64,000 nucleotides of DNA, taken from NCBI GenBank assembly GCA_965652395.1, contig CBFGUW010000002.1, forward strand, positions 57,583 through 121,582. The letters are read 5' to 3'. Below are positions 30,970 to 59,544 of the stretch, piece after piece. The notes under the pieces were generated by a model, which saw only the letters and a list, made by a program, of their open reading frames with translations, was not told the DNA's origin and searched no databases. The position numbers were made by a program, and so were the translations under genes. The stretch's first letter is position 1. Every line of letters starts with the position of its first letter. This DNA is from an uncultured Saccharospirillum sp. Its GTDB lineage: Bacteria; Pseudomonadota; Gammaproteobacteria; Pseudomonadales; Natronospirillaceae.

Positions 30970-30992
30970 TCGCTAAAACGGAGACTTAATCT

Positions 30993-33008: not shown

Positions 33009-33026
33009 TCTCCGGAGACAGGGACC

Positions 33027-36000
33027 ATGACCACTGACCATCAGGATGTCAGCCAGCAGGAACAGGATAGCGCTATCGACAAGGCCGTCTCCGAAGGTGG
33101 CGCTTACGATGTTATTCGCAAGCGGCTGCTGGACCAGGGCCGTCAACTGGCCACCGAGGTCGAGCATCTCAATAATGCACGACTGGAGGAGTTTGGAAAC
33201 ACCGGTCAGGAAGTGATCGGTCGCATGAGAGTGCGCACCGAGAACAACTGCGTTGCCCGCGACATTGTGAGAGTCGGTGAAAACCTGCTGTTCGGCTACA
33301 ACGTTTACATCGGGCTGAAGCAGACCACCCGGATCGAAGACGTGTTCGCCCTGTTTCGACTGGTCGACCAGGGCGGCCAGTTCGAAATGGAAGCCGTTTC
33401 TCTGAAGCCCTCCTTCCTAAGCGATCCGGGTTTTATTAAAGACTTCGAAGAACTCTATACCTATTACAAACAAACCAAGCTGATTCAGTTGCTGGTGATC
33501 AACGGCAAGCTCCTGGCGGCGTTCCAGATTGGCGAGCGCGCCTCCGACATTCGTGTTTTCCGTTGGTCGGTGTCAGCGGATGGTCAGGAGGTCCGCTATA
33601 TCGATAACAGAGGCGAGCGGGATATCGCATTGCCTCCGGCTCATGATTTCGAGTGGACCGCCACCACCCGAGACGACATCGTTCATGGCAGCCAGCCTCA
33701 CGTAAATATTCTGGATACCTTGTTCGTCGAAACCCTTCAGGGTGAGCTGACCATCAAGGTTGAAAACAACACGGAAGACGGGCTTGGTCTGTATCGGGAA
33801 CCGGTGGAAGAAGCCAACCAATCGCTGACCGACGCCGAGTTCCACTACGCGCGTCTGGGCGAATTGATCTTACTGAAAGTACTGCCCTACCGGGAGGACG
33901 CACCCCGCCACTTTGTATTCAACAGCCTGACACAAAGCGTTCACCGTATCGACGCACTGGGAGAAGCTTGCCAGCAATTGCCGGAAGACCACGGCATTAT
34001 ATTCCCGGGCGGTTATTACCTGACGAACGGTGAAATGAAACAGTTTGAAAGTAACAGCCAAGGGCTTAAATTTCGCCGGGTCATCAAGTCTCCCAATGGA
34101 GAGGATGTACTCTACGTTTTTTATGAACCCGAAGAAGGCCGGGTAGAACTGTTTCCCTACAATCTGATCAACAAGGCGCTGAGCAACCCGATCGTCGGTC
34201 ATGGTTATGCCCTGGGTGAGGACGGCAAACTGGTAATCTTCACGGCCGAAGGGGAACCCACCCGGGTCCACCCCATGCAGGTGTGGCAGACGCCGTTCTT
34301 TACGGAGGAGTTCGCCAGTGCTCAGCCGCCCAGTCAAAGTTTTTATGGCCGCATCGGCAACCCGGAGCTGGTGCGAGGTATTTCGGAAATCTATTCCATC
34401 GTCCGAACGATCAATCAACAATCGGCCTCCAGCCGCCTCTACAGTGACCTGGCGCAACATTGCCGCAAGGTGTTCGATGCCTATCACTGGCTCGACACCC
34501 AAGAGTTACAGGCCGCCGCTACACTCATCAAAGAAATCGCCAACACGGCCGAGCTGGTACTGGACGAGTTTGAAAAAGTCCAAACCATTCGGGAGCAGGC
34601 GGAAACCGCCCTTCGCGACGCCAGAGCCGACCAGGCCAAATTGATTGGCCAACTGCACATCGATAGCTGGCAAAGGCCGGATCAATACGTCGATGCACTG
34701 GCTCAGCTCAGGCGTCAACGCGGCCGCCTGCTGACCATCCGCGAACTTCGCTACATGGATGTCGCCGAGGTCGATGCCCTTGAAAACGAACTGGTCACAG
34801 CCGATGATCGGGTCGCTTCCGCAACGGCCACCTTTCTGGCCGGTGAAGAAGCGCTGTCACCCTACCTCACCCGACTGAATGAAATACAGGAAGCCATCGA
34901 AGCTGCCGACACTATTGCCGAACTGAAACCGGAACTCGCCACACTGGACCAGCTTTCTGAAGGACTCGACCTGCTTTCCGAGCTCGCCGCCGGGCTAAAG
35001 GTTGAGGATGCCACCCAACATACCCGCATCATCGATTCCATAGGAGAGGTTTACGCCCTGGTAAACCAACGAAAGGCTCAGGCACGCAATAAACAACAGA
35101 ATCTGGGTGGCGCCGAAGCACGCGCTCAGTTTGCCGCTCAATTCAAGTTATTCAGCCAGTCCATCACCAACGCACTCAGCCTGGCACGCACACCCGAACA
35201 AAGTGATGAACAGCTATCCCGACTGCTGGTGCAATTGGAGGAACTGGAAGGGCAGTTTTCGGAGCACGATGAATTTCTGGGCGATATCCTGACCAAACGT
35301 GACGAAATTCATGAGTCCTTCGAGGCCCACCGCCAGCGGTTAATGGATGAACGTCATGCCCGGGCACAATCGCTATTCGATGCCGCCAGCCGCATTCTGG
35401 ACAACTTGCAGCGCCGCGCTAACAAATTCGACAAGGCCGAAGAACTGAACAGCTACTTCGCGGCCGACGCCATGGTGCTCAAGCTCACCGACCTGGCCAG
35501 GAATTTGAGAGTGCTGGACGATGTCGTCAAAGCCGACGATATCGACGCGCGTCTTAAGTCTATTAAAGAGCAGGCGATACGTGGTCTGCGTGACAAGACG
35601 GACATTTTCGAAGAAGGTGGCAAGGTCATTAAACTCGGCCCCCGCCACAAGTTCAGTGTCAATACACAAGAACCAGACCTGACCTTGCTGCCACGCGAAG
35701 ACGATTTGTACCTGCATTTAACCGGCACCGATTATTACGAAGCGCTGAATCACTCTGAGTTGAACGCCTGCCGACCCTTCTGGCATCAGACTCTTGAGTC
35801 CGAAAACGAACAGGTCTATCGCGCCGAATACCTGGCGTCCCGCATCATGGAAGCGGCCGATCGAAACCTGGAAGGGCTCGATATCGAACAGCTGGAGTAT
35901 GCCGCCAGTGACTCCAAGGCACTGCTTGAACTGGTTCGACGTTACAGCGCTCCACGCTACAAGGAAGGTTATGAAAAGGGCATCCACGACGCCGATGCGG

Positions 36001-42209: not shown

Positions 42210-42354
42210 TTAATCGTGGCATCCCCTGTAGCGGCTCCCGTAATTACAGGGGTTCTTCAAGCCAAATGACGGCTAATCCCGGGAAAGGTTGCTAAACTGC
42301 TGTCTAACTGTATTTGACACCCTAACTTTTTGGGAATTGTGGAGCGCTGAGCTT

Positions 42355-43305
42355 TTGGGCTTATTGTCACCGATTCGACGTAACAAACGCCAACATTGGA
42401 TTTACCTCACCGAAGAGGGCATGGGGCTGGCGGGCATTCAGGCCAATGGCGATGCCATGCCACGGCTGGAATATTGCGACTGGCTGTCCGAGCCGGATGC
42501 ATTGAACCGCCCGGGCGAACTGGCCTCTAAAGTGGCCGAGAAAGCCAGTGGCACGGTGAATCTGTTGCTGGGTGAAAGCTTCTATCAGTTATTACTGGTC
42601 GATGTTCCCGATGTCCCGGCCGAGGAAATCGAATCCGCTCTGCGACTCAAGGCGGCGGAACTCATCAGTTATGACATCGAAGAAGCGGCTATTGATGTGA
42701 TATTGCTGCCGACGGATGCCTATCGCGGCCGGTTGCGCATGGCATTCGTCGTGGCCACCCAAAAAGCGCCGTTGCGCCAATGGGCTCTCGAGCTCGCCAA
42801 GCGCGGACTGATACTGTCGGTTATCGATATCGACCAGATGCAACTGCGCAACCTCGCCATTCGCACCCAGCAGCGTCATCAGAGCGGTCTGCTCCATTTA
42901 GGGCCGACCCAGTGCCGCCTGGTGCTTCTCTACGAAAACGAGATCGTCTTGTCGCGCCAGTTCGATATAGGCTACCAAAGCCTTGGCATGGAAGGCCCCG
43001 GCGAACCGGGACTGGTGCTGGAGGGGCAGGACGATATCCAGCTTGAATCCCTGGTGCTGGAGCTACGCCGCTCGTTCGATTATTACGAATCCCAACTCGG
43101 CCTTGGCAGCATCAGCGAAGTGTCGTTGCTGGGTTGGCCCGGCGATACCAGTCTGGCGGGCTCCCTGGGTGATAAAATGGGCGTTCGCTTCCAATTGTTG
43201 ATGCCCGAAGACGTACTCCTGTTACCGGCTGAACTGGAGAGCTCCCCCCTGCCCGACCCGGTTATTCCGCTATTGGGAACCGCCTTTCGGGAGGTCAGCC
43301 CATGA
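42355..43305 (+). CDS. mshI: MSHA pilus biogenesis protein MshI (PilM-like actin-fold domain); start uncertain (TTG at 42355 chosen; ORF opens at 42289 in AT-rich leader)
   Basis: PilM-like N-terminus LLGLLSPIRRNKR...; first gene of msh-type cluster. Confidence 0.55.
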   Translation: MGLLSPIRRNKRQHWIYLTEEGMGLAGIQANGDAMPRLEYCDWLSEPDALNRPGELASKVAEKASGTVNLLLGESFYQLLLVDVPDVPAEEIESALRLKAAELISYDIEEAAIDVILLPTDAYRGRLRMAFVVATQKAPLRQWALELAKRGLILSVIDIDQMQLRNLAIRTQQRHQSGLLHLGPTQCRLVLLYENEIVLSRQFDIGYQSLGMEGPGEPGLVLEGQDDIQLESLVLELRRSFDYYESQLGLGSISEVSLLGWPGDTSLAGSLGDKMGVRFQLLMPEDVLLLPAELESSPLPDPVIPLLGTAFREVSP

Positions 43306-43925
43306 CTCGTCATATCAATCTGATGCAGCCGGACATCCTACCGGGCTTCGGGCGCTGGCAGGTTCCTTCGTTTATTGCCGCTGTCCTGGTGACACTGATC
43401 ATCAGCGGGCTCTATACCCTCTACCAATGGAACGAACGACAAGAACTGCTCGACGAAACCGCCTATTGGCAAGGCGAAGTGGTCACCAGCCAGCAGCGTC
43501 TGCAGGATTTCCAACGCGCCAATCCTTCCATGGCGAGCGAAACGGAGCTGCAAAAGGAAAACGAGACCCTGAAAACCCGGCTGAAAGAGCGTGAGTCGGC
43601 CTTGAGCGGCCTGGCCACCCAGCTGGATATCTCAGCCCAAGGGTTTTCCCAATCCCTGGCGAATCTGTCCAACTATGACCTGGACGGCATCTGGCTGACT
43701 CACATCCAATTGAGAGACAGCAGTGCCCATCTGGGCCTGGAAGGCTTTACCCGCGACCCCGGCCTGGTACCCCGCTATCTGGCACAACTCGAAGGGTCGG
43801 TATTCGACGGTTTGAGCATTCGCAACCTCAACATTCAGCAGGCAGGCGAAGAAGCGGACAACCTTTGGCGGTTCTCCATCGCCGATACCGCTGTCACCCC
43901 AACCACTGACGGAGGGGTGCGCTGA
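43302..43925 (+). CDS. MSHA biogenesis protein, PilN-like (MshI C-terminal half / MshI2)
   Basis: Single N-terminal TM, coiled coil, PilN-like periplasmic domain; overlaps upstream stop. Confidence 0.5.
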   Translation: MTRHINLMQPDILPGFGRWQVPSFIAAVLVTLIISGLYTLYQWNERQELLDETAYWQGEVVTSQQRLQDFQRANPSMASETELQKENETLKTRLKERESALSGLATQLDISAQGFSQSLANLSNYDLDGIWLTHIQLRDSSAHLGLEGFTRDPGLVPRYLAQLEGSVFDGLSIRNLNIQQAGEEADNLWRFSIADTAVTPTTDGGVR

Positions 43926-44567
43926 ATGGCCTGGACATTCCAACTGAGGCTCTGGCTCGATCGTTTCCAGCCCCGGGAACGTTTGTTAATGCTGATTTCC
44001 CTGGTACTGGTGGTGGGATTCTTGTTTCAGGCAGGAATCTGGCTAAGTGGCCTGACCCACCAGGACACCCTCGAACAACGCATTGAAACGCTGCGCAAGG
44101 AGTTCACAGCCAACCAAAACGCGCTGATCGCCTTGCAGGAAGCGATGAACAATCCACTGGCCCGAAACCTGAGCGAGCAAAACCGGGCTCTGCAAGACCA
44201 ATTGCAGGAACTCGACAATCGTATCAGCCGAGTGACCGATGTCCTGATTCCACCGGACCGGATGGTCACCCTGCTGCGCGAACTGTTAAACGAAAACGGC
44301 CTTACCCTGCAGCGCCTGGACGTCAAACCAGCGGCCAGAGTGCAAAGCAGTGAAGGCGACCCGGGGGTCATTCTCTATCGACACCGGCTGGAACTGGATT
44401 TGCAAGGCAACTACACCGCCTTGATGCAATATCTTGACGCTATCGAGGCCAAACCCTGGCAACTGTTTTGGGATGAGATCAGCATCGAAACCAAGAATTA
44501 CCCCCAATTGAACATCCGGCTGCGGGTTCATACCCTCAGCGATCAGGAGGAGTGGTTGAATGTTTAA
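43926..44567 (+). CDS. mshJ: MSHA biogenesis protein MshJ (PilO-like)
   Basis: TM + coiled coil + PilO-like domain; position in cluster. Confidence 0.55.
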   Translation: MAWTFQLRLWLDRFQPRERLLMLISLVLVVGFLFQAGIWLSGLTHQDTLEQRIETLRKEFTANQNALIALQEAMNNPLARNLSEQNRALQDQLQELDNRISRVTDVLIPPDRMVTLLRELLNENGLTLQRLDVKPAARVQSSEGDPGVILYRHRLELDLQGNYTALMQYLDAIEAKPWQLFWDEISIETKNYPQLNIRLRVHTLSDQEEWLNV

Positions 44568-44904
44568 AGCTCGCTCCTTGATCTGGGCGCTGATACTGCT
44601 GCCCTGGGTTTCGGCTACTCACGCCGACCCCATGCGACCGGACAACTATCAGTTGCCGCAGACAAACCAGGCTCCATCAATCGTCTCCGAACCCAGCCTG
44701 GTACTGAGCTCCATCTATATTCTCGACGATCAGCGCTATGCCGTGATCAACGGTCAGTGGCTGACTCTGAACGATACCATTCACAACTACCGGTTGACGG
44801 ATATCAGACCCGACCATGTTCACCTCAGACAGGGCAGCCGCCAGCGCACCCTGGAACTGCGGCAGGCGGGATCGCTATCCATCACCGAAACCGACGAGGA
44901 ATGA
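44560..44904 (+). CDS. mshK: MSHA biogenesis protein MshK (PilP-like lipoprotein)
   Basis: Signal peptide, ~110 aa, position between mshJ and secretin. Confidence 0.5.
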   Translation: MFKARSLIWALILLPWVSATHADPMRPDNYQLPQTNQAPSIVSEPSLVLSSIYILDDQRYAVINGQWLTLNDTIHNYRLTDIRPDHVHLRQGSRQRTLELRQAGSLSITETDEE

Positions 44905-44920
44905 CCTTGTGACAGCCCGT

Positions 44921-46480
44921 ATGCCCTCGGCCATCGTCAAACCGCTGTTCGTCCTGGGGGGAATCGTCCTCACCGGCTTGGTGGGATGCGCTTCCGTTCC
45001 CGACCAACCGGATGAAGTCCCCGATTTTGATGCCCGCGCCGCCCTGGCCGAAGAACGCCCGAATGCGGTTCCGAATCCACGGCCGGCCACACCGGTCAGC
45101 GCGCCCTCCGCGCTGGAAAGCGATCTGCTGGATTTCAGCCAGGCGCCCCGCACCGCCAAGCGGTTCGATGTGCAGGCCCAGAACGTTCCATTGCAACGAT
45201 TCTTCGCCGACCTCGGCCAAACTGAAGGCATCAACGTTCTGGTGGACCCTACGATCAATGGGAGCATCAGCCTGAACATGCGGTCGGTTACGATTGATCA
45301 GGTCATGAATGCCATACGCGATCTCTATGGATACGATTACCGCCGTACGGACTACGGCTACCGAGTGCTACCCAACCAGATCCAGACCCGGATTTACCAT
45401 TTGAACTACCTGAATGTATCGCGTTCGGGTCGTTCCGATACCACCGTCAGTGGCGGCCAGATTGTTGCTTCTGAAAGCGGCAGTAACGAAACCAGCAGCG
45501 TTTCCACCGAATACAGCGCGGATTTCTGGCAGGGTATGGAAACCACTGTTCTGGGCCTGCTTGAAGATGAACCGGGCCGCCAGGTCGTGGTCAACCCGCA
45601 GTCCGGGCTGCTGGTTGTACGCGCCACGCCCCGTGAACACGAGACAGTCGCCCGGTTTCTGGAAGATGCCGAAGGCAGCCTGCAAAAGCAGGTAGTGATT
45701 GAAGCCAAAGTGGTTGAGGTGACTCTTAGCAACGAGTTCAGGGCCGGTATCAATTGGAACACCTTTGCCAACGATCTGAGCCAGGCCTCCTCTGAAACCG
45801 GTGGCATCCTCAGTGGTAACGCCCTCTCGGGTGTTGGTGGCATTGGCGGTGTCTTCAGCCTGAGCATTGCCAGTGGCGATTTCGCCGCCATGTTGCAGTT
45901 GTTGTCTCACCAAGGCGATGTTCAGGTGCTCTCCAGCCCTCGGGTTTCCACCGTAAATAATCAGAAAGCTGTGATTAAGGTCGGTACCGATGAATTCTTC
46001 GTTACCGAAGTGACCTCACGAGTGGAGGACGAGGATACGGGAGAGGCCACGCCCGAATTCGTGTTATCCCCTTTCTTCTCTGGTATCGCGCTTGACGTTA
46101 CCCCTCAGATCAGTGCTGAAGACAACGTAATCCTGCATGTTCGCCCCTCAGTGACCGAAGTGACCGAAAGCACCAAGGTGATCAATGTAGGCGGCGCCAC
46201 CTACAACCTGCCGCTGGCCCTGTCTAACATCCGGGAAACAGACAGCATTATTCGGGCGTCCAGCGGCCAGATCGTCGTCATCGGCGGGCTGCTGTCCCAG
46301 AAAAACGATACCTCGGCCACCGGCCTGCCCTGGCTCTCCCAGGTGCCGGGTTTGAAATTCCTGTTCGGTCAACAGCGGCAGGCCCGCAGCAAGAGCGAAC
46401 TGGTGATCCTGTTGAAGCCGATCGTCTACGACGAAGGCACCACCCTGAACGACCTGGACCAGGTCCTCAAACGGATGTAA
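44921..46480 (+). CDS. mshL: MSHA secretin MshL (type II/IV secretion secretin family lipoprotein)
   Basis: Lipobox LVGC; secretin C-domain (VIKVGTDEFF..., LLSSPRV, VVIGGL); alternative GTG start 44909. Confidence 0.8.
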   Translation: MPSAIVKPLFVLGGIVLTGLVGCASVPDQPDEVPDFDARAALAEERPNAVPNPRPATPVSAPSALESDLLDFSQAPRTAKRFDVQAQNVPLQRFFADLGQTEGINVLVDPTINGSISLNMRSVTIDQVMNAIRDLYGYDYRRTDYGYRVLPNQIQTRIYHLNYLNVSRSGRSDTTVSGGQIVASESGSNETSSVSTEYSADFWQGMETTVLGLLEDEPGRQVVVNPQSGLLVVRATPREHETVARFLEDAEGSLQKQVVIEAKVVEVTLSNEFRAGINWNTFANDLSQASSETGGILSGNALSGVGGIGGVFSLSIASGDFAAMLQLLSHQGDVQVLSSPRVSTVNNQKAVIKVGTDEFFVTEVTSRVEDEDTGEATPEFVLSPFFSGIALDVTPQISAEDNVILHVRPSVTEVTESTKVINVGGATYNLPLALSNIRETDSIIRASSGQIVVIGGLLSQKNDTSATGLPWLSQVPGLKFLFGQQRQARSKSELVILLKPIVYDEGTTLNDLDQVLKRM

Positions 46481-46492
46481 CCGACCAACCCT

Positions 46493-47407
46493 ATGTACGA
46501 AGCGCACTTCGGGCTACAGCAACGGCCTTTCAGCCTGTCTCCGGACACGGCCCTGTTCGTGCAACTGGACGATCACGAAGCCTGTTACCGGCTGCTGACG
46601 CACGTATTGGACACCGGAGAAGGGTTTTTGAAGGTGATCGGCGACGTGGGCACCGGCAAAACCATTCTTTGCCGCCGCCTGCTGCGCTATCTCAGCGACG
46701 ACCCGGTCGCCAAAGACCGTTTTCACAGCGTATATATTCCCAACCCCATGCTGTCCCCGGTGGGGCTTTACCGGGCGGTCGGGCATGAGCTGGGGCTCAA
46801 GCTTTCCGAGCAGGCCGATAACGCCGCGCTGCTCGAACATATCAACCGGCGCATTCTGGCCCTGGCGGAACAGGAGCGGGGCGTGGTCATCGTCGTTGAC
46901 GAGGCCCAATCACTGCCCGCCCAAACCCTGGAAGCGCTGCGGCTGATCACCAATCTGGAAACCGAGCGGCAAAAGCTGGTACAGATCATCCTGTTCGGCC
47001 AGCCGGAGCTGGATGATCTGCTGAACCACAAACGTTTTCGCCAGTTGCGGCAGCGAATCACCTTCGCCCACTACTTAAAACCGCTTGATCGGCAAGCCAC
47101 CCGTCAATACCTTGACTACCGGCTATCCCGTTGCGGTTATAACGGCCCGACACTATTCGACCAACGCACTTTGGCCACGCTGCACAAGCGCACCCATGGT
47201 GTGCCCCGAATGATCAACGTTCTGGCGCACAAAGCTCTGCTGTCAGCATTTTCCGAACAACGACGCCAGATCAAACCGGCCGACATTGACCGCGCCTGGA
47301 GGGACAGTCAACCGGAACACCAAGGCTACCGTCGATGGCTGGCCCCTTCGATGGCCGTATTGACCGTAGGCCTCCTGATCGCCGTGTCGGCCTGGAGCTT
47401 CCTGTGA
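46493..47407 (+). CDS. mshM: MSHA biogenesis protein MshM (ExeA-like AAA ATPase)
   Basis: Walker A GDVGTGKT, Walker B VVIVVDEAQ; ExeA family. Confidence 0.75.
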   Translation: MYEAHFGLQQRPFSLSPDTALFVQLDDHEACYRLLTHVLDTGEGFLKVIGDVGTGKTILCRRLLRYLSDDPVAKDRFHSVYIPNPMLSPVGLYRAVGHELGLKLSEQADNAALLEHINRRILALAEQERGVVIVVDEAQSLPAQTLEALRLITNLETERQKLVQIILFGQPELDDLLNHKRFRQLRQRITFAHYLKPLDRQATRQYLDYRLSRCGYNGPTLFDQRTLATLHKRTHGVPRMINVLAHKALLSAFSEQRRQIKPADIDRAWRDSQPEHQGYRRWLAPSMAVLTVGLLIAVSAWSFL

Positions 47408-48504
47408 GCCTGATCCATCAGGCGCTCAACCGACCGGAACCGCCGGAGCGGGAGAATAACTCTCAGTTCAACCCTATGGGCCGACCGAACAGCCAAAGCC
47501 GGGCGCTCTGGTGGTGGATCACCGCCATGGCAAGTCTCGCCACCCTATCCCTTTTGGGTTATCAGGGCTGGCAATCTCTGAACAACACCCCTGCCGTACA
47601 GGAATCTACACCTCAAACTCCGTCGGCGAATCAGGCGGTCGCAAGGCTCAGCCCACCGAAAGAGGTTGCCAAGCCAGTAGACCCGTCCTCCGGCTCAAGT
47701 GTTGAACAGACACCCATCATTCAGAGCAAACCTGAGGAATCGCTCCCGGCAGCACCGGTTCCAGCAAATCCCAAACCCGCGACGCCGAAACCAGCACCCA
47801 TCGAAGCACCTCAACCTGAGACTCAGCCAAAGGTTGAGGTGGATGTTGAAACAAAAGCGGCACCAGAGATGACCCAACCGGAACCCGAAGTAAAACCGGA
47901 AGCGGTTGCCAACGCGCCAACAGAGGAAACACCGGCTAAGGAAACCGGTGCGAATTCGACACCAACCATCACCAAAGCTACCGTTAAACCGGTCATGGAG
48001 ACGGCGAACACCGACACTGCGGAAAGCAACCCGGTAAGACCGGCGCGAAACCCAGATCAGGACCTGGAAGCCCGGGTGCAAAACGCGCTTGACCAAGGGG
48101 AACTGGAACGCGCCGAATCCTTGCTTAAAGGGTGGATCGACCGCGCGCCTGACGCCGAAATGCCGCGTCTTTGGCTGGCCAAAATCTATCTCTCCAGCGG
48201 GCTGCCTGAAGCAGCCGACCCCTTGTTAAACGGCCTCGGCTCAGTGGAAGCGCTGGGGCTTCGGGGCTTGCTGCTGGAAAAGACCGGGCGTTATCAGGAT
48301 GCTTCCCGAGTGTTTGAACACCTGACCCGCCGGGAGCCGGAAACCCCCGGCTGGTGGCTTCATTGGGCGATTAACCAGGAAAACGGCGGTCAACTGGCAA
48401 AGGCACGAATCTTGTATCAGACTTTCCTGAAAGAATTCTCAGCCTATGACGCCAGCCTGACTGCTTTTGCCAGGGAGCGTTATCAGGCACTGGAGGGGTG
48501 GTGA
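47404..48504 (+). CDS. mshN: MSHA biogenesis protein MshN (TM + Pro/Ala/Glu-rich linker + C-terminal TPR)
   Basis: GTG start overlapping mshM stop (GTGA); low-complexity PAPxxPKP linker; TPR-like C-terminus. Confidence 0.5.
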   Translation: MSLIHQALNRPEPPERENNSQFNPMGRPNSQSRALWWWITAMASLATLSLLGYQGWQSLNNTPAVQESTPQTPSANQAVARLSPPKEVAKPVDPSSGSSVEQTPIIQSKPEESLPAAPVPANPKPATPKPAPIEAPQPETQPKVEVDVETKAAPEMTQPEPEVKPEAVANAPTEETPAKETGANSTPTITKATVKPVMETANTDTAESNPVRPARNPDQDLEARVQNALDQGELERAESLLKGWIDRAPDAEMPRLWLAKIYLSSGLPEAADPLLNGLGSVEALGLRGLLLEKTGRYQDASRVFEHLTRREPETPGWWLHWAINQENGGQLAKARILYQTFLKEFSAYDASLTAFARERYQALEGW

Positions 48505-49346
48505 TGGCGACCAGCAGGCTGTATCAGGTATTGCGAGAGCATTCGGACATCGATCCGCAAATGCTGGATGCAATCCAGGCTGACCTGGAAGACCCCGAGG
48601 ACGGACGCAAGCTGGGTGAAACGGTCGTTAGAGAGGGCCTGATTTCGTTTTCCACTATGATGGAGCTGTCCTTTACCCACGAACTGTTTCCAAAAACGCA
48701 AAGTGTCCTAAAGCGCATCGCCAAGGCCCGCCAAAAGCGTCAGTTCATCAAACCCAAAGCACATGAGACCCGCTACCGCCTCGCCGATGATGAGAAAATG
48801 TCTGAAATGGTGGTGTTTCCCGGAAACGAGATTCAGCTGAAAATCCCCAGGCCCAATCTGGCCCGTTACAACGCCGTCAGCACGGACGAACGACAGGTGG
48901 TGGAAATGGCTGTGGAGCTGGTCAACATCGGGCAACTGCGGGAAGCGGAAATGTTCCTGATAGACGCCCGGGAGGAATTTCCAAATTCAGTCCGGGTCCC
49001 ATTGCTGATCGTCTGGCTTTATTTTTTGTGTCAACGCTTCGGCCCTGCCTGGGAATGTGCCAACCAGGCCAGAAAAGAACACCCATCGGACGTCAATCTC
49101 CTCGAATATCAGGCTTTTTTGGAACAATGCATCGGCAAGCATTTGCTTGCCGTCCACCATTACCAGCAACTCACCTTGCTCGCGAATATCAAAAACATCT
49201 GGTACCTGCTGCTCGCCTACTCTTTGGAACACGCGGGGCTCGCCATGGATGCGGCTATTAACTATCGAATCTTCCTGAAGCTCAATCAACAGGAGGAATT
49301 GACCCATTTTGTTCAACATCGATTGGAAAAACTGGTTTCCCAATGA
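48498..49346 (+). CDS. hypothetical protein with T2SS-E-N-like N-terminal segment and TPR-like helical repeats, inserted between mshN and mshE
   Basis: Overlaps both neighbours by 4-7 nt (operon member); no confident family. Confidence 0.45.
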   Translation: MVMATSRLYQVLREHSDIDPQMLDAIQADLEDPEDGRKLGETVVREGLISFSTMMELSFTHELFPKTQSVLKRIAKARQKRQFIKPKAHETRYRLADDEKMSEMVVFPGNEIQLKIPRPNLARYNAVSTDERQVVEMAVELVNIGQLREAEMFLIDAREEFPNSVRVPLLIVWLYFLCQRFGPAWECANQARKEHPSDVNLLEYQAFLEQCIGKHLLAVHHYQQLTLLANIKNIWYLLLAYSLEHAGLAMDAAINYRIFLKLNQQEELTHFVQHRLEKLVSQ

Positions 49347-51100
49347 CACAACAAAACGACGCAAGCCGTAGTCAAAAACGCGTCCGACTGGGTGACCTCC
49401 TGGTCGAAGCTGGCCTCATCACCGAAGGGCAGCTGAACCTCGCGCTTCAGGAACAAAAGCACACCGGTAAAAAAATCGGCAGGGTGTTGGTCGATATGGG
49501 ATTGGTTCCTGAGAACAAACTGCTGGGCACGCTATCCAACCACTTGAAAATTCCGTTTATCGAGTTGCGCCAGTTCCAGCTGAACAACGATGTGATGCAA
49601 CGCCTTGATGAATCCATCGCCCGCCGTTTCCGTTGCCTGCTGCTGGCCGACAACAACGACGGTCTGCTGCTCGCCATGGCCGACCCGTTGGACTTGATGG
49701 CCATCGACGAGGTTGAAAAACGTCTTAAGAAAACCGTCAAACCGGCCATTGTTCGTGAATCGGAACTGTTGGCCACGCTCGACTCGGTTTATCGTCGGAC
49801 CGGACAAATCGAATCCATCGCAGTGGAACTGGAAGGCGAACTGCGCGACAGCGACTTCGACCTCGCCAACCTCGCCGACGATACGGACCTTCAGGACGCG
49901 CCCGTCGTTCGTCTTCTGCAAAGCCTGCTGGAAGACGCCGTCTCGGTGCGTGCCTCGGACGTTCACATCGAACCGGACGAGGCGGTTTTCCGCATTCGCA
50001 TGAGGGTCGACGGTGTTCTACAGGAACAGGTGATCAAAGAAAAACGGGTCGCCTCAGCGCTCGTGCTGCGCCTTAAAATCATGTCCAACCTGGATATCTC
50101 AGAACGCCGCCTGCCACAGGATGGCCGCTTCAATATTCGGGTCAACAACAAGTCCATTGATGTGCGTCTGTCCACCATGCCCGTTCAATACGGCGAGTCG
50201 GTTGTGATGCGACTGCTTGATCAAAGCGGCGGTGTGCTGTCGCTTGAAGCCCTGGGCATGCCGGAAAGTGTTCGCAAGCGGTTTGAGTTAATGATTGAAC
50301 GGCCACACGGCCTGATTCTCGTTACCGGTCCGACGGGTAGTGGTAAAACCACGACCCTCTATTCGGCTTTAAACCTGCTGAATAAACCGCAAAACAAAAT
50401 CATCACGGCGGAAGACCCGATTGAATACCGGATGAGCCGTATCAACCAGGTTCAGGTCAACCCCAAAATCAATCTCGATTTTGCCAGCATTCTGCGCACC
50501 GCCCTGCGTCAGGACCCGGACATCATTCTCGTCGGCGAGATGCGCGACCACGAAACCGTCTCCATCGGCGTGCGCGCCGCCTTGACCGGCCACCTGGTGA
50601 TGAGCACTTTGCACACCAACGATGCCATATCCAGCGCCATGCGCCTGGCTGACATGGGAGTGGAACCCTATCTGGTCGCCTCGGCACTGCGCGGCGTAAT
50701 GGCGCAGCGACTGCTGCGCAAAGTCTGCGAAGACTGCCGCCAACCACATGAACCCAGCGTACGGGAAAAGCTTTGGTTGCAAAACATGGCCGGAGGCCGA
50801 TTTGTCGACCATCATTTTCACACCGGCGCGGGGTGCTACCAATGCAACAATACCGGCTATCGCGGTCGGGTGGGTGTTTATGAGTGGCTTGAGCTGGATG
50901 AAGCCATGCTCCTGGCACTACGGGACCAAAACCACAATGCTTTTGTCGACGCTGCGCGACGCAACCCCAACTTTAAATCGATGGAAGAATGGGCTCTGGA
51001 ATATGCCGAAGCCGGCATTACCGATCTGAATGAAGTGTTCAAGATCACCGCCGATCTGAACGAAGACTCATCGACTGAACAGACGACCCAACATGGCTGA
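49343..51100 (+). CDS. mshE: MSHA pilus extension ATPase MshE (GspE family) with N-terminal c-di-GMP-binding MshEN domain
   Basis: RLGDLLVEAGLITEGQLNLALQEQ...GRVLVDMGLV MshEN motifs; Walker A GPTGSGKTTT; tetracysteine CxxC...CxxC zinc motif. Confidence 0.85.
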   Translation: MTQQNDASRSQKRVRLGDLLVEAGLITEGQLNLALQEQKHTGKKIGRVLVDMGLVPENKLLGTLSNHLKIPFIELRQFQLNNDVMQRLDESIARRFRCLLLADNNDGLLLAMADPLDLMAIDEVEKRLKKTVKPAIVRESELLATLDSVYRRTGQIESIAVELEGELRDSDFDLANLADDTDLQDAPVVRLLQSLLEDAVSVRASDVHIEPDEAVFRIRMRVDGVLQEQVIKEKRVASALVLRLKIMSNLDISERRLPQDGRFNIRVNNKSIDVRLSTMPVQYGESVVMRLLDQSGGVLSLEALGMPESVRKRFELMIERPHGLILVTGPTGSGKTTTLYSALNLLNKPQNKIITAEDPIEYRMSRINQVQVNPKINLDFASILRTALRQDPDIILVGEMRDHETVSIGVRAALTGHLVMSTLHTNDAISSAMRLADMGVEPYLVASALRGVMAQRLLRKVCEDCRQPHEPSVREKLWLQNMAGGRFVDHHFHTGAGCYQCNNTGYRGRVGVYEWLELDEAMLLALRDQNHNAFVDAARRNPNFKSMEEWALEYAEAGITDLNEVFKITADLNEDSSTEQTTQHG

Positions 51101-52340
51101 GTTTTTTTACCGGGGCCGTACCCAGGACGGCCAGGCCGTTGAAGGTGTATTGGAAGCCGCTTCCCAGGGAGCGCTGCTGCAACAGCTGAAGCGCCAGAAC
51201 ATCATCCCCACTACCGTACAACCTGCTGGAAAACGAGCGGGCTCGGGCGGTTCAAAGTTCAAACTCGACGTTTCGATGGGCGAGCTGCTGAATCGGAAGA
51301 AAAAAGTCAGCACCGATGAACTGATCATGTTCTGTCGCCAGATGTTTGCCCTCACCCGCTCGGGCATTCCGCTGATGCGTGCCATCAACGGTCTCGCCGA
51401 TGCAACGCGTTCACCGCGCCTCGGCGAAGTACTGCGCGACATTACCCGCAGCCTGACCCAGGGCACCACTCTCTCCACAGCGTTTCGCGGCCACCCGGAT
51501 GTGTTCAACGATTTATTCATCTCGATGATTCGCATGGGGGAATCCACCGGGCAACTGGACACCGCGTTCAAGCAGCTGATTACCCATCTTGAGCTGGAAA
51601 AAGAAACAAAAAAACGCATTGCCTCGGCCACGCGTTACCCCATCATTGTGGTCAGCGCCATTATGGTGGCCATGCTGGTAATTAACTTCTGGGTGATTCC
51701 CGCCTTTGCCGGCGTGTTCGCCAAACTCGGCGCCGACCTGCCGATACCCACCCGCATTCTCATCGGCAGTTCCGAATTCATGCTCAGTACCTGGCCTTAC
51801 CTGCTGGGGCTGATCGCGCTGTGTCTCTACGCGTTCTTCCGGTGGAAAAAGACATCGGAAGGCCGTCTGAAATGGGATCGTCTGATTCTGAAATTCCCGC
51901 TGCTGGGCGGCGTCTACGAACGCATTGCGCTCGGACGCTTCGCACGCCCCTTCGCTATGATGCTGGAAGCCGGAGTTCCGCTGCTGCAGGCACTGAATGT
52001 CGCCAGCCGCACCACCGGTAACCGCTATATCGGTCGCGGTATAGAAGGCATGGTGGGTGGCATCGAGCGGGGCGAATCACTGCTCGCCACCGCATCGGCG
52101 AGCGGCATGTTCAACCCCCTGATTCTGCAAATGATCGCCGTTGGCGAGGAAACCGGTAACGTCAGTGACTTGCTCGTCGACATCGCGGATTTTTACGACC
52201 AGGAAGTGGAATACGATCTCAAACGCCTCGCCGAAGCCATAGAACCCATACTGTTGGTATTCATGGGCGCCATGGTATTGGTGCTGGCTCTGGGCGTGTT
52301 TTTACCGATGTGGGATTTGGGGTCGGCGTTTGGGGGGTAG
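51093..52340 (+). CDS. mshG: MSHA platform protein MshG (GspF/PilC family)
   Basis: Two GspF repeats, 3 TM; overlaps mshE stop. Confidence 0.8.
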   Translation: MAEFFYRGRTQDGQAVEGVLEAASQGALLQQLKRQNIIPTTVQPAGKRAGSGGSKFKLDVSMGELLNRKKKVSTDELIMFCRQMFALTRSGIPLMRAINGLADATRSPRLGEVLRDITRSLTQGTTLSTAFRGHPDVFNDLFISMIRMGESTGQLDTAFKQLITHLELEKETKKRIASATRYPIIVVSAIMVAMLVINFWVIPAFAGVFAKLGADLPIPTRILIGSSEFMLSTWPYLLGLIALCLYAFFRWKKTSEGRLKWDRLILKFPLLGGVYERIALGRFARPFAMMLEAGVPLLQALNVASRTTGNRYIGRGIEGMVGGIERGESLLATASASGMFNPLILQMIAVGEETGNVSDLLVDIADFYDQEVEYDLKRLAEAIEPILLVFMGAMVLVLALGVFLPMWDLGSAFGG

Positions 52341-54177: not shown

Positions 54178-55188
54178 TCAGCGGTGATCGCTGTCCCAAT
54201 TGAACAGCAAGGCGGCGATCAACAGGAAGATAGCCGACATCCCGGCTAGAATCAGTAAGTGGTCACTCACTTGCATCAGTGTCGCACCCTCGGTCGTAAT
54301 CTCCCTGGCGGCCGATACCAAATGGGTTAACGGCAGCAACTGGGAGACCTGATGCACGCTCTCCGGTGCGCCTTCCAGCGAGAACCACACTTCCGACAGC
54401 CCCATCATCGGCCAAGTGGCCATGTTCATCAGCCCCCCCGTCAACTCTTCGCTGCGGGTACGGCTGGCTACGGCCAGACCGAGGGAAATCATTGCCAGGG
54501 CGCCCAATACAATAGTCAGCACCAAGGGACCATAGGAACCCAACATCAGAGTGCCCAACGCCCAATGGCTGCCAAAGAACAGAATGGCGGCGATCACCAT
54601 GACGGTAAGCAGGCGAGAGAGAATCTGAGCACCGACAAATTCGAACGCCGATAAGGGTGTCGCTTTCAACCGCTTCAATACACCGTTCTTGCGGTAGCGA
54701 ACAATCGCGTACCCCACCCCGAACAGTGAACTGAACATAATATTCATGCCGATCACACCCGGCAGCACCCAATCCACGTAACGAATCGGCTCACCATGGA
54801 CCAGTCGCCGGTTGAAATCCGTGTCCTCGGCGACCAACAGGCGCTCGGCCATATAGCCATTGCGGCTTTCCTCGTTGACCCAGTACAGGCGTTTGTCGAG
54901 ATCCAACAACAGATCGATCTGATGGCGGCGCACCCGGTCGATGGCGACATCCTGCTCCTCATAGGGCACGAACTGAATATGGTTCAGCGCCATGAAGCGG
55001 GGTTTGGTGATGTAAGCATCTTCCTGGCTGATCACCCCGACTTTGAACATGGGCATGCCCTGCCCGAAGATAAAGTAGAAACCGAAGACCAACAGGAACG
55101 GAAAGGCCAGGTTCCAGGCCAGTGAACTACGGTCGCGCCAGAATTCTTTATTGCGGGCGTTAAATACCGCCAGCATGCGTGTCAGCAT
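54178..55188 (-). CDS. ABC-2 type transporter permease
   Basis: 6 TM ABC-2 architecture; follows ATPase gene. Confidence 0.7.
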   Translation of the reverse strand: MLTRMLAVFNARNKEFWRDRSSLAWNLAFPFLLVFGFYFIFGQGMPMFKVGVISQEDAYITKPRFMALNHIQFVPYEEQDVAIDRVRRHQIDLLLDLDKRLYWVNEESRNGYMAERLLVAEDTDFNRRLVHGEPIRYVDWVLPGVIGMNIMFSSLFGVGYAIVRYRKNGVLKRLKATPLSAFEFVGAQILSRLLTVMVIAAILFFGSHWALGTLMLGSYGPLVLTIVLGALAMISLGLAVASRTRSEELTGGLMNMATWPMMGLSEVWFSLEGAPESVHQVSQLLPLTHLVSAAREITTEGATLMQVSDHLLILAGMSAIFLLIAALLFNWDSDHR

Positions 55189-55206
55189 TGCTCAGTCTCC
55201 AAGGGG

Positions 55207-56085
<879 letters not shown>

Positions 56086-56312
56086 GCTTTTTTCACTGTG
56101 GTTGCCCTGCCCCGGCCCGCTACAATGCGGCGGGTAGAGACTAGAGAATTAAGTCGACGCTTTCCATGGCCGATAAGTCATTCAATTGAACGGCCCCTAA
56201 GTGTTAGACTGACCTGTCAAAATCGCAGCCGGCAAGGCTGTGTGCCTGCTCTCTCTTTTCTGCTTTTTCTTACCGGTCACCGGGCAGGCCGTCACAACAT
56301 TGAGGTAGCTGT

Positions 56313-57077
56313 GTGATTCCCGAAAAAGTCCTGGTGGTGTCTCCGGCTCTGGCAGAGACACTGGGCCTGGAAGAGGCGCTATTGTACCAGTTGCTGACCG
56401 AGCTGGCCCTACTGGGTGGTCAACCGTTACAGCTGACGGAAGAGCATCGCCGTCGGCTGCTTCCCTTTTGGAGCCCGACCCAACTCAGCTCGGTACTGCG
56501 TCGTCTACAGGCGCAGGGCTTGCTGACAGCGGAAGGGAGCGCTCCCTGGCAGGTCAGACTGATCGATCTCGACAACGAAGCAACGGAACCTGAGCCGGAG
56601 GCCAAAGCCACTGCACCGGCTGTGAGTCAACCCGTCGAACCACTCAATCGAGTGCCTGTGTTCGGAATGAACGATGCCCGGCGGCGGAACCAAATGGAAG
56701 ACGACCTGGCTTATCTGCGTAACGATCAGGCTCCCCAGGAATCGGTCAGAGCGGAACGGACGCGGATGCACGACAGCTGGGAACCCTCGGAAGACTTTCC
56801 CCGATTACTGTCTTTCCACGACATCCCACTGACGTTCGCCTTATCCGAACTGGCCAAGTTCCGTCAGTACTACCAGGATAAGGACAGAGCGGAATACAGC
56901 TGGGATGTTCGTTTTTTAAACTGGGTCCAACGGGCCTGGCACGACCAACTGAATAACAAGGGCCGATATGAGCGTACCCAACGAACCCAAAACACCCCAG
57001 AGAGTGCAAACCCTGCTCGGGAAAAGCGGGCCAAAGTTCGTGAAGCCCTTCGAAACATCCAAGACACAGACTGGTGA
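56313..57077 (+). CDS. DnaT-like protein (N-terminal winged-helix-like region, acidic linker, C-terminal DnaT ssDNA-binding domain homolog)
   Basis: C-terminal WEPSEDFPRLLSFHDI...ELAKFRQYYQDKD...VRFLNWVQRAWHD parallels E. coli DnaT C-terminus (YPDWQPDADFIRLAALWGV...ELASFIAYWQAEGK...VQWQQKLARSLQ). Confidence 0.6.
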   Translation: MIPEKVLVVSPALAETLGLEEALLYQLLTELALLGGQPLQLTEEHRRRLLPFWSPTQLSSVLRRLQAQGLLTAEGSAPWQVRLIDLDNEATEPEPEAKATAPAVSQPVEPLNRVPVFGMNDARRRNQMEDDLAYLRNDQAPQESVRAERTRMHDSWEPSEDFPRLLSFHDIPLTFALSELAKFRQYYQDKDRAEYSWDVRFLNWVQRAWHDQLNNKGRYERTQRTQNTPESANPAREKRAKVREALRNIQDTDW

Positions 57078-57765
57078 CGCTTCACCGCTGGATCACGAAA
57101 CCAAACTGCTGATCAACATGCTGTTCGCTCGGCTGCAGCTCATTTACACCCACCGTTTCGAAAGCGCCTACGGCGATGAGACCACCATCACCCAGGCCAA
57201 ACGCGAGTGGGGGTACAGTCTGGCCGGTTGCCCCAGGGAACGCATCGAATATGCTTTGGAACGCTGCAAACTGGAGTTGGCCTGGCCCCCGACCATCGCC
57301 GAATTCCGCGCCTATCTGGAACCCCGGCCCGAGGACCTCGGTTTGCCATCCACCCGCGAGGCCTACCTGGAAGCCTGCCAGAAAAGCCATGCCCCGCTGC
57401 GGGAGCGCTGGTCACACATTGCCGTCCACCTGGCAGCCAGAAACACCGGCTATTTCTCGCTCCGGTCGGAGTCCGAACGACTGACCTGGCCATCTTTCGA
57501 GAAAGCTTATAAAGAAGTGGTCTCGCGCTATGCCGATGGCGAAGAGCTGGTCATCGACACTCCAATAGCCCTGCCCGAGCCAGACCTGAGCGCCGAAGAG
57601 CGGTTGGTGGAACAGCTGGTGGCGGCCGGAGTGGAAAAAGCCGAGGCCTACCCTCTGGCCTACTACTTGGAAAAGCCCCAGGGCAGTGCCGTGAGAACGC
57701 GTTATCGGGAGCGGGCGCAACACCAACTCAAGGCGTTGAACATAGAGCTGACACTGCCGGATTAG
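56968..57765 (+). CDS. phage lambda replication protein P-like helicase-loader homolog (start uncertain: 56968 with 110-bp overlap, or 57118)
   Basis: LLINMLFARLQ...REWGYSLAG...LAWPPTIAEFRAY aligns in order with lambda P GVFSQLLATF...RQWVLAFREN...PFLPSPGQFVAWC; N-terminal length matches lambda P if 56968 start used. Confidence 0.5.
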   Translation: MSVPNEPKTPQRVQTLLGKSGPKFVKPFETSKTQTGDASPLDHETKLLINMLFARLQLIYTHRFESAYGDETTITQAKREWGYSLAGCPRERIEYALERCKLELAWPPTIAEFRAYLEPRPEDLGLPSTREAYLEACQKSHAPLRERWSHIAVHLAARNTGYFSLRSESERLTWPSFEKAYKEVVSRYADGEELVIDTPIALPEPDLSAEERLVEQLVAAGVEKAEAYPLAYYLEKPQGSAVRTRYRERAQHQLKALNIELTLPD

Positions 57766-57784: not shown

Positions 57785-58705
57785 TCAGGGGTTAACCGCC
57801 AGCTTTTCGCGATAGAAATCGATAAAAGCCCGTACCTTGGTCGGCATCTGCTTCCGGCTGGGATAGAGGGCAAACATCTGGTTGACCGGCAAACCTTTGA
57901 TATCGAACCGATATTCAGGCATCAATGCCACCAACTCGCTACGCTCAAGCGCCTCGCCGATCAGCAGATCCGGCAGCAGCGCCAACCCCAGATGCTGTTT
58001 AACGCCGCTGATAACCGCCGCTACCGAATGGCTGGCTACCCGGCTGTCGACATCCAGACTGTGATGGTCTTTTCCCTTCGTGCAGATCAATGACCGATAG
58101 TGTTTAAAGGTCAAAAAGGGATGATTCGACAGATCGGCGATGGTCCTGGGCTCCCCTCTTTCCGCCAGATAGTTCGGAGTGGCGCACAGCACCAGCCGGA
58201 CATCGGCGAAGGGCACCGCTATGTATGACGAATCAACCAGGCGCCCCACCCGAATCACCAGATCGAGTTGATCGGCCACCATATCCTGGAGGCTGTCGTC
58301 GCATTGAATTTCAAGCCTGATGTCCGGAAACCGGTTTAGAAATTCACCCAGGTGGGGCGCGATTTTCGCTTCCATCCAGGTGTGAGGAGCGCTGACCCGG
58401 AGCAGCCCAGAGGGCCTATCATGAAACTCGCTGACAGCCTGATGGGCCTCCGTCACCCGCCGCTGCACATCACGCGCCTTCTCATAATACAGCTGGCCCG
58501 CCTCGGTAAGGTTCAAACAGCGCGTGGTACGTTGCAGCAGCCGCACATTCAAATGCGCTTCGAGCGCATTCACCTGACGCGACACCGATGGCTGTGACAG
58601 CCCCAACCGCCGTGCGGCCTCGGAAAAGCTGCCGCTGTCGACCACGGCGATAAACACCTGCATGGATGCCAGAAGATTGGTATTCAGCAAAACCGGCTCA
58701 CTCAT
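57785..58705 (-). CDS. LysR family transcriptional regulator
   Basis: N-terminal HTH (FIAVVDSGSFSEAARRLGLSQPSVSRQVNALE), C-terminal LysR substrate-binding domain. Confidence 0.85.
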   Translation of the reverse strand: MSEPVLLNTNLLASMQVFIAVVDSGSFSEAARRLGLSQPSVSRQVNALEAHLNVRLLQRTTRCLNLTEAGQLYYEKARDVQRRVTEAHQAVSEFHDRPSGLLRVSAPHTWMEAKIAPHLGEFLNRFPDIRLEIQCDDSLQDMVADQLDLVIRVGRLVDSSYIAVPFADVRLVLCATPNYLAERGEPRTIADLSNHPFLTFKHYRSLICTKGKDHHSLDVDSRVASHSVAAVISGVKQHLGLALLPDLLIGEALERSELVALMPEYRFDIKGLPVNQMFALYPSRKQMPTKVRAFIDFYREKLAVNP

Positions 58706-58803
58706 ACGTTTTTCAAATAAATACTATGCGCCTGGGCATTATTGTCAAAAATCATTTATGAAATAACAATCGTCGCCTCCACATCACGCTTAAGAGGTTC
58801 ATC

Positions 58804-59544
58804 GTGCCATTTACGCTCTCTGGGAAAACCGTTTTGATCACAGGGGCCAACCGGGGTATCGGCTTGGGTTTTGTCACCACCCTGTTGGAGGCCGGAGTCA
58901 GCCGGATTTACGCCACCGCCCGTCAGGCGGAGGGGTTACAGCAATTGGCGGATATGAATGCGGACATCATTCGGGCGCTGCCGCTGGACCTGAACGATAC
59001 CGCCTCCATTCAGGCACTGGCCGGGCAGATTGAATCACTGGACATTCTGGTCAACAACGCAGGGACCATCGCCGCCACACGCTGCAGCGACGATAACGCC
59101 GTAGAAATGATCCGCCAGGAAATGGAAACCAACCTGTTTGGAGCGATGAAATTGACCTCTGAACTATTGCCCTTGCTCAGGCAATCCCAAGAGGCGGCGA
59201 TTGTGAACGTGTCATCCATCGCCGCGATCTGCAACTTTCCGTCCATTGGCACCTACTCGGTGACCAAAGCGGCCATGCAATCCTATACCGAAGGCCTGCG
59301 GGCGGATCTGGCCGGATCGTCGATTCAGGTGGTTGGAGTGTACCCGGGCCCGCACGACACCCGCTTGGCTGCCGGCACCGAGATGGATAAACCGGCTCCT
59401 GACAATGTGGCGGTAAAGACGTTCGAGGGCCTGGAACAGGGCAGTCTGGACATCTACCCCGACGAATTTTCGGCCCAGATGAGAAGTCTGTTCCGGGAGG
59501 ATGAGGCAAAACTGGCCCAACTCTTTGCCCAGATGAGCCAGTAG
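58804..59544 (+). CDS. SDR family oxidoreductase
   Basis: TGANRGIG cofactor motif, YxxxK catalytic (YSVTK). Confidence 0.8.
   Translation: MPFTLSGKTVLITGANRGIGLGFVTTLLEAGVSRIYATARQAEGLQQLADMNADIIRALPLDLNDTASIQALAGQIESLDILVNNAGTIAATRCSDDNAVEMIRQEMETNLFGAMKLTSELLPLLRQSQEAAIVNVSSIAAICNFPSIGTYSVTKAAMQSYTEGLRADLAGSSIQVVGVYPGPHDTRLAAGTEMDKPAPDNVAVKTFEGLEQGSLDIYPDEFSAQMRSLFREDEAKLAQLFAQMSQ

Follow-up and report, generated by a model that had tools for sequence, protein, structure and literature searches.

The window analysed here is the whole stretch of 64,000 nucleotides (nt) of contig CBFGUW010000002.1, positions 57,583 to 121,582, from an uncultured Saccharospirillum sp., and the subject of this report is a pair of consecutive genes within it, dopC and dopE. 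A reading made from the letters of the window alone, hereafter the sequence-only reading, had placed two open reading frames (ORFs) here on the plus strand, and both are present. DopE is a protein of the phage lambda P type, and DopC joins an N-terminal winged helix to a domain resembling E. coli DnaT's C-terminal domain (CTD). Judged by sequence, we have here the orthologues, in Saccharospirillum, of dopC-dopE, an already published system, and they come from a host family that was sampled in 2017. The system is a lambda O/P-type module, described as domesticated in Cellvibrionales and in Oceanospirillales without dciA, that has been proposed as the replicative helicase loader of marine bacteria in which the usual loaders are missing (Brezellec et al. 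2017, Genome Biol Evol, PMC5509034). That this locus might be an instance of such a domesticated loader was also the suggestion of the sequence-only reading, and it is upheld by an architecture matching published DopC and DopE, by a conserved non-prophage site and by purifying selection.

Domains and folds of DopE and DopC

The assignment of DopE to the lambda P type is solid for both family and fold. The Pfam family PF06992 (Phage_lambda_P, replication protein P) matches aa 48-194 with an E value of 3.7e-7 and 30.5 bits against a cutoff of 26, and phrog_109, annotated as 'P-like helicase loader', matches with an E value of 5e-26. The top three Foldseek matches of the DopE model are all lambda P chains of the DnaB6-P5 complex (9oa1_Z, Y and V), with a probability of 1.00 and template modelling (TM) scores on the target of 0.47-0.52 over 192-208 aligned columns. 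The sequence-only reading had described DopE as aligning block by block with lambda P; the relationship in family and fold stood, and the wording was generous, as a direct hhalign comparison covers 148 columns at 23% identity with an E value of 0.0098, in a register that pairs DopE 43-194 with lambda P 34-195. Because a search of PDB by sequence with the DopE profile did not recover lambda P, returning only Med18 (unrelated, E ~0.2) and SPP1 G39P (E 0.44), the link to lambda P is drawn through Pfam, PHROG and the fold comparison. In addition, DopE is 33% identical to the P-like loader of Pseudomonas phage PAJU2, whose gene directly follows an O-like gene. A total of 88 DopE homologues were found, and those in Saccharospirillum, Reinekea, Salinispirillum and Marinomonas carry the name 'replication protein P'.

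The AlphaFold model of DopE, built with 19 sequences, has a mean predicted local distance difference test (pLDDT) score of 83. In it aa 1-41 are disordered, residues 43-189 form a helical core modelled with confidence, and the C-terminal part (208-256) contains three helices (208-219, 224-235 and 241-256, pLDDT 86-92). Lambda P itself is described in four domains: domains II and III lie between two lassos, of which the C-terminal one is wedged into the junction of the docking helix and linker helix (DH-LH) of DnaB, and the N-terminal one, domain I (aa 1-29), shows intrinsic disorder and takes up its fold on the DH helix of DnaB (PMC12661323). By position, DopE aa 1-41 would be the equivalent of this 'N-terminal lasso', and the C-terminal helices may likewise be the counterpart of the C-terminal lasso. 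Within these helices R247 is invariant and Y233, R243 and L254 are nearly so; the region is longer than in lambda P or PAJU2 P, and the alignment with PAJU2 P ends at DopE residue 204. DopE is all-helical, without a P-loop fold, and neither ORF gave a match in Pfam or NCBIfam to the AAA+ IstB-like (DnaC/DnaI) families or to PF05258 (DciA). DopE therefore shares with lambda P its Pfam family and fold, the disordered N-terminus, the two-part helical core, the C-terminal helical segment, the lack of an ATPase domain and the position of its gene after an initiator-like gene. It differs from lambda P in overall sequence (~23% identity), in a C-terminal region that is unrelated in sequence, in being encoded on a chromosome rather than in a phage, and in having a partner gene, dopC, that carries no origin.

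DopC, for which a database entry of identical sequence exists (P0089, 254 aa), matches PF17948, the DnaT DNA-binding domain, over aa 151-215 with an E value of 1.4e-16 and 60.3 bits against a cutoff of 25, so that a profile search of both proteins, one of the checks attached to the sequence-only reading, gave matches above the cutoffs for the DnaT domain and for lambda P. That reading had the first ORF ending in a homologue of the DnaT CTD. The homology holds, and the domain is not terminal, being followed by a conserved tail of ~40 aa. DopC as an orthologue of DnaT was rejected: the DnaT family model NF002770 scores 17.3 bits against a cutoff of 201, with only profile positions 65-133 of 179, those of the linker and CTD, aligning. 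In the DopC model (mean pLDDT 77) a disordered linker leads from the winged helix (11-87) to a short conserved helix, after which come a bundle of three helices (150-226) and, at 234-250, a terminal helix. The short helix, predicted at aa 121-131 after a stretch with pLDDT below 50, belongs to a conserved linker motif (Table 1) in whose alignment N126 and Y134 are invariant and P115 and D130 nearly invariant. The GTG start of dopC, together with a GAGG 8 nt upstream (56302-56305), is kept in 8 Saccharospirillum species. Published DopC is a protein of ~253 aa with an N-terminal helix-turn-helix (HTH) or winged helix, a C-terminal DnaT_C motif and no iterons, alongside a DopE that carries PF06992 (PMC5509034), and a C-terminal DnaT_C motif (PDB 2ru8-like) is present in the window protein. 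The 66 homologues of DopC include those of Saccharospirillum and Reinekea, which are named 'DnaT-like ssDNA-binding domain-containing protein'.

The DopC N-terminal HTH has been tied to that of lambda O by HHpred, via HTH_36 (PF13730) (Brezellec et al. 2017, PMC5509034). BFVD, a library of viral structures, has phage models of ~268 aa, named 'replication protein' and 'replisome organizer', that match DopC along its length (E 6e-6), and the C-termini of PHROG 'replication initiation protein' families 1032, 1408 and 2509 match its C-terminal part. These fold matches suggest that the combination of winged helix and DnaT-like domain was already present in phage initiators and may predate domestication, rather than having arisen by a domain swap after it. 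Like lambda O and phage O-like initiators, DopC has a winged-helix N-terminus and is encoded directly upstream of a P-like gene; unlike them, it lacks PF04492, an iteron array and an AT-rich origin. Its N-terminus is also what sets it apart from E. coli DnaT, which has its own N-terminal domain in place of a winged helix, and the dopC-dopE pair differs from the E. coli dnaT-dnaC operon in that the loader is of the P type and not the AAA+ protein DnaC.

The representatives of the DopC family that were found are nearly all metagenome proteins, with one from Marinobacterium sp., and many are 350-450 aa long with 3-5 matched stretches. On metagenome contigs of Porticoccaceae (L086/L087, 6001-7672), a Cellvibrionales-type DopC of 364 aa (P0153) carries, behind its winged helix, DnaT-like repeats in three tandem copies; the gene downstream of it (177 aa) has no recorded Pfam match and is clearly DopE-like (hhalign 99.8%), and this locus adjoins radA.

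Table 1. Features of the dopC-dopE locus (window coordinates; ssDNA, single-stranded DNA)
Feature	Position	Strand	Description
Conserved block CCATGGCCGATAAGTCATTC ... GTGTTAGACTG	56164..56211	+	Lies 100-150 nt upstream of dopC, in the spacer between it and the divergent ABC gene
dopC	56313..57077	+	254 aa, GTG start, TGA stop; winged-helix and DnaT-CTD-like protein, putative adaptor
DopC N-terminal winged-helix domain (aa 11-87)	56343..56573	+	Most conserved part of the protein (VSPALAETLGLEEALLYQLL...LLPFWS)
DopC conserved linker motif VPVFGMNDARRRNQMEDDLAYL (aa 114-135)	56652..56717	+	Preceded by a disordered P/E/A-rich linker (aa 90-113)
DopC DnaT-CTD-like three-helix domain (aa 151-215)	56763..56957	+	Putative ssDNA-binding domain
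dopE	56968..57765	+	265 aa from a conserved ATG, TAG stop; lambda-P-type protein, predicted helicase loader
Out-of-frame overlap, 110 nt	56968..57077	+	DopC tail Y219-W254 (...KRAKVREALRNIQDTDW) and DopE aa 1-36, +1 frame
DopE N-terminal disordered region (aa 1-41)	56968..57090	+	Residues 1-37 modelled at pLDDT below 50
DopE helical core (aa 43-194)	57094..57549	+	Corresponds to lambda P domains II and III; pLDDT 90-97
DopE C-terminal helices (aa 208-256)	57589..57735	+	Candidate DnaB-binding 'C-terminal lasso'

The dopE start and its overlap with dopC

Comparison of related loci points to a dopE start that lies well inside dopC. At all 78 loci where the motif around a conserved internal methionine (NM[LI]FAR) was located, the dopE frame is open for at least 52 codons upstream of that methionine, a candidate dopE ATG lies 47-74 codons upstream of it and always within the 3' end of dopC, and dopC stands in one constant frame relative to dopE. 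The distance from the dopC stop codon to the internal methionine ranges from 37 to 130 nt and is always 1 mod 3 at these 78 loci; because all of its indels are multiples of three, this apparent 'spacer' is coding. In the window, the ATG is built from DopC codons Y219-E220 (tAT Gag), right after a conserved KGR. Over 79 loci the overlap measures 92 nt at 52, 95-104 nt at 22, 110 nt at two (the window and S. salsuginis) and 122-125 nt at three, and the 92-nt loci that were inspected belong to Marinomonas or close relatives. Such lengths stand apart from the phage arrangements, in which O and P overlap by 4 nt (lambda) or 1 nt (PAJU2).

The same start is favoured by several further observations. 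The diversity of third codon positions in dopC is lower inside the overlap than outside it (0.33 versus 0.46), though the amino acid sequence is more variable there, and at several Saccharospirillum loci the upstream ATG and the internal methionine are the only available starts. Residue 1 of PAJU2 P aligns to DopE residue 17, and because the phage protein aligns from its first residue, the N-terminal extension of DopE is homologous to the phage P N-terminus. From these comparisons of sequence we conclude that 56968 is the likely start of dopE and that its first 110 nt overlap dopC, a possibility that the sequence-only reading had raised. Shorter versions in the databases, such as entry P0001, which starts dopE at GTG 57040 (241 aa), and the many annotated homologues that start at the internal ATG (57118 here; 215-217 aa), are probably truncated at the N-terminus. 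A universal dopE Shine-Dalgarno sequence embedded in the codons for DopC KGR was considered and dropped, as AAGGG or AAAGG is present in Saccharospirillaceae and the upstream context is different in Marinomonas.

A resident chromosomal operon

The pair is a resident chromosomal operon and not part of a prophage. A Pfam survey of candidate ORFs found no phage, integrase, capsid or repressor gene in the 64-kb window, in line with the sequence-only reading, which had noted none nearby; the same stretch, which is part of the genome only, holds no DnaC/IstB-like or DUF721 gene. The flanks are also as that reading described them, with an ABC-2 exporter at 54178-56085 (-) on one side and LysR (57785-58705, -) and SDR (58804-59544, +) genes on the other. 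GC content is uniform over the window, a tRNA scan found no tRNA in it, and there is no Rfam match around the locus.

A scan of GTDB representative genomes gave 76 loci, onto which the neighbours of the window pair were mapped by tblastn. The site ABC exporter / dopC dopE / (SH3) pnp recurs in Saccharospirillum, Reinekea, Salinispirillum and Natronospirillum, with the ABC side kept in the latter three, and the ABC/dopC-dopE/pnp arrangement was confirmed by tblastn in every Saccharospirillaceae locus. In S. mangrovi, R. thalattae and Salinispirillum the common site comprises the divergent ABC exporter, dopC dopE and then SH3-pnp-rpsO-truB-rbfA-infB-nusA. The Marinomonas pair resides at a different, equally cellular site. 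By tblastn, dopC was detected at 74 of 80 related loci, and the C-terminal tail of dopC is found at every locus scored for overlap. How far two loci differ in the protein sequence of DopC or DopE goes with how far they differ in the adjacent ABC genes (pairwise distances, r 0.90 for DopC and 0.94 for DopE; Mantel 0 of 2000), this congruence being with linked neighbour genes and not with a species tree. The site shared over genera and the distances that track the ABC genes answer the check on synteny and vertical inheritance, which the sequence-only reading had set against a prophage context, in favour of inheritance with the chromosome. The ratio of nonsynonymous to synonymous substitution rates (dN/dS) is 0.05-0.13 for both genes, which are under purifying selection.

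Viral collections hold little that resembles the pair. The best phage P match to DopE is 33% identical, phage genomes and IMG/VR contain essentially no close relatives, and IMG/VR contributed only three partial P-like ORFs of 177 aa, without a DopC-like neighbour. PADLOC returned no defence-model match for either protein.

The locus is not an origin of replication, in agreement with PMC5509034. No iterons were found in or around dopC, where only two-copy repeats at chance level occur, and the gene contains no AT-rich origin. The window contains 3 DnaA boxes against 2.7 expected, with none and hence no cluster at the locus, and the cumulative GC skew, which falls steadily over most of the window, has no turning point there. 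Two perfect matches to the DnaA-box consensus (TTATCCACA) lie elsewhere, at 28615-28623 (+) and 29901-29909 (-), 1.3 kb apart and near the DUF2170 and PspA genes. Upstream of dopC, the columns of the conserved block listed in Table 1 are shared by 8 Saccharospirillum species, while the remaining spacer cannot be aligned. Tentatively, the block might be read as a promoter of the extended -10 kind (TGtTAGACT) or as the site of a regulator; a scan for consensus sigma-70 promoters found nothing at 56164-56211 or at the locus.

Relatives of the window pair place it within the published distribution. DopE is 62-81% identical to its closest named counterparts, those of Saccharospirillum, the best among the GTDB representatives being S. 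salsuginis (81%), and DopC reaches 86-87% in that genus; next come Reinekea, Salinispirillum, Natronospirillum and Marinomonas at ~40%. Gynuella, one of the original dopCE genomes in the dciA-less set (PMC5509034), belongs to Saccharospirillaceae, the same family as the closest relatives of the window pair. The Saccharospirillaceae and Marinomonas lineages are among the dopCE carriers without dciA and dnaC/I (PMC5509034), and Marinomonas genomes are listed with 0 dnaC/I and 0 dciA in a 2016 supplementary table whose coverage does not extend to Saccharospirillum and Reinekea. The published loci have the same two genes in the same order, surrounded by non-prophage cellular genes in alternating directions, and the window DopE is 37-42% identical to Marinomonas copies, that of M. 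posidonica included, so there is no difference in kind. Relative to the portion of the PMC5509034 text that was available, the additions are the 92-125 nt overlap, the ABC exporter / SH3-pnp context specific to Saccharospirillaceae, the single DnaT repeat here versus three in Porticoccaceae DopC, and the LysR and SDR genes downstream of dopE. These last two genes (57785-59544) lie between dopE and the SH3 gene as an insertion in the window genome and were found at that position in 0 of the compared Saccharospirillum and Reinekea loci, S. salsuginis and S. mangrovi included. One further dopC-dopE locus with a Marinomonas-type DopC tail (SSALTNIHDTDW) is on NZ_JBHTMN010000017.1 (L037), labelled Rhodanobacter aciditrophus JCM 30774; because Rhodanobacter belongs to Xanthomonadales, the record is probably mislabelled or contaminated.

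The rest of the window is made up of cellular genes: amylases, MalT, PFK, MotAB, IspA-Dxs, a two-component system, sugar ABC transporters, a PspA/DUF3686 cluster, UbiH-like oxidoreductases, an MSHA-type pilus operon, patatin, the ABC-2 exporter, LysR, SDR, an SH3 protein and PNPase. The type IV pilus operon (42289-52340, +), a few kb upstream of the locus, encodes PilN-like and T2SSM-like proteins, a secretin, an AAA_22 ATPase, TPR proteins, the MshE ATPase and a T2SSF platform protein, and its mshE-mshG end is syntenic with those relatives whose retrieved loci extend that far upstream. The PspA cluster is co-directional (28918-38282, +) and consists of DUF2170 (28918-29559), PspA/IM30 (29575-30267), two ORFs without a Pfam match, one at 30331-30969 and one of 671 aa at 30993-33008, and a 1751-aa protein (33027-38282) in which DUF3686 ('ATPase involved in DNA repair') is combined with DUF7902 and an AAA domain. 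PADLOC identified no real defence system in this cluster, only weak coiled-coil matches of PspA to JetC and LmuB.

Proposed role in helicase loading

We consider it probable that dopC-dopE came from phage replication, as a module in which an initiator-like gene precedes the gene of a P-type loader, that it was turned into a resident operon in an ancestor of Cellvibrionales and some Oceanospirillales, and that it acts there as the helicase loader. What we observe directly is the identity of the domains and folds, the residency of the pair, its purifying selection and the conserved overlap, and from this we infer the following course of events. Both proteins would be made from one transcript, with initiation of dopE inside the last 110 nt of dopC coupling their synthesis. 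The C-terminal helical segment of DopE would bind the DH-LH junctions of the host DnaB hexamer and open the ring, as lambda P does, while its helical core would oligomerise atop DnaB and its disordered N-terminus would serve as a second lasso or as a contact to DopC. DopC would no longer mark an origin; its DnaT-like domain may instead bind ssDNA at a DnaA-opened oriC or at abandoned forks, probably forming filaments, and its winged helix, its conserved tail or both would recruit the DopE-DnaB complex.

Several results weigh against this account. The C-terminal region of DopE is unlike that of lambda P and PAJU2 P, so the lasso-type binding to DnaB is an assumption made by analogy. DopC does not match PF04492 (Phage_rep_O), a search in which the O-like protein of PAJU2 scores 69 bits, and its hhalign comparison with lambda O (E 0.23, in a non-homologous region) amounts to no sequence similarity; tblastn with DopC found 0 matches in 50,697 phage records and 0 in IMG/VR. 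No similarity between DopC and PAJU2 O was detected either. Because DopC lacks such similarity, the case for its phage origin is made from gene order, the PHROG matches of its C-terminal part and the fold matches. Finally, no experiments on DopE or DopC were found in the literature that was searched, and a paper of 2024 still describes the role of DopE only as 'suggested'.

Restart of replication, rather than initiation at oriC, could be the main task of the pair, with DopC as a functional analogue of DnaT that recruits DopE-DnaB to abandoned forks bound by PriA and with oriC served by DopE alone or by another factor. This possibility was raised by Brezellec et al. (PMC5509034) and overlaps with the helicase-loader account rather than excluding it. 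The DnaT CTD is the sole DopC domain with a known biochemical role: in E. coli it forms filaments on lagging-strand ssDNA, within the PriA/PriB/DnaT preprimosome, and has been proposed to recruit DnaB/DnaC (PMC13377028). The gene order, a dnaT-like gene and then a loader, also mirrors that of the E. coli dnaT-dnaC operon. We nevertheless hold it rather unlikely that restart is the main role, as DopC is without the DnaT N-terminal domain and the PriB-docking linker, resembles the DnaT family model in the CTD region only (see above), and has an N-terminal winged helix like that of replication initiators; moreover, dopE was identified through its mutual exclusion with dciA, an initiation factor (PMC5509034). 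In a further, unlikely reading, the conserved overlap would do more than save space and would dual-code a possible working interface, made up of the disordered DopE 'lasso' and of DopC's invariant C-terminal helix, whose tip is DTDW. Such an arrangement would tie dopE translation mechanically to dopC translation and give a loader-adaptor unit of fixed ratio, and DopC, with its winged helix and a filament-forming DnaT domain, would be a DnaA/DnaT-like ssDNA platform replacing both DciA at oriC and the PriB/DnaT restart step. If this were true, a single phage-derived module would have taken over two host pathways.

A role outside replication would be phage exclusion, in which a resident P-type loader grips DnaB and thereby blocks its hijacking by incoming phages. 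Brezellec et al. suggested this as a possible added selective advantage, and in competition for DnaB lambda P is known to prevail over DnaC (cited in PMC5509034). As the main reason for which the pair is kept, exclusion is very unlikely: the search of defence models was negative, the locus stands among a pilus operon, an ABC exporter and pnp and not in a defence island, and the distribution is strictly vertical, single-copy and clade-wide where defence genes are patchy. In a cell without another loader, moreover, the pair would need a function beyond exclusion. That the two genes are a decaying remnant of a prophage or mobile element without a host function is extremely unlikely and already contradicted by the data. 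Both families are typical of lambdoid phage replication modules; the 64 kb contain no other phage gene, however, and the site is identical over at least four genera. Both genes are intact in the 79 loci with the conserved overlapping start and evolve under the constraint described above, their divergence tracks that of neighbouring genes, there is no compositional anomaly, and close relatives are essentially missing from viral collections.

The window adds an orthologue from a Saccharospirillum-like genome and leaves what is known of the system unchanged. Its practical contributions are the likely true start of dopE with the long overlap, domain boundaries with confident models, and the conserved upstream element, to which the sharing of the whole DopC architecture with phage replication proteins at the level of fold may be added. 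After DnaC/DnaI and DciA, DopCE has been proposed as the third type of loader for the replicative helicase of bacteria, and its validation would close the last sizeable free-living clade without a known loader.

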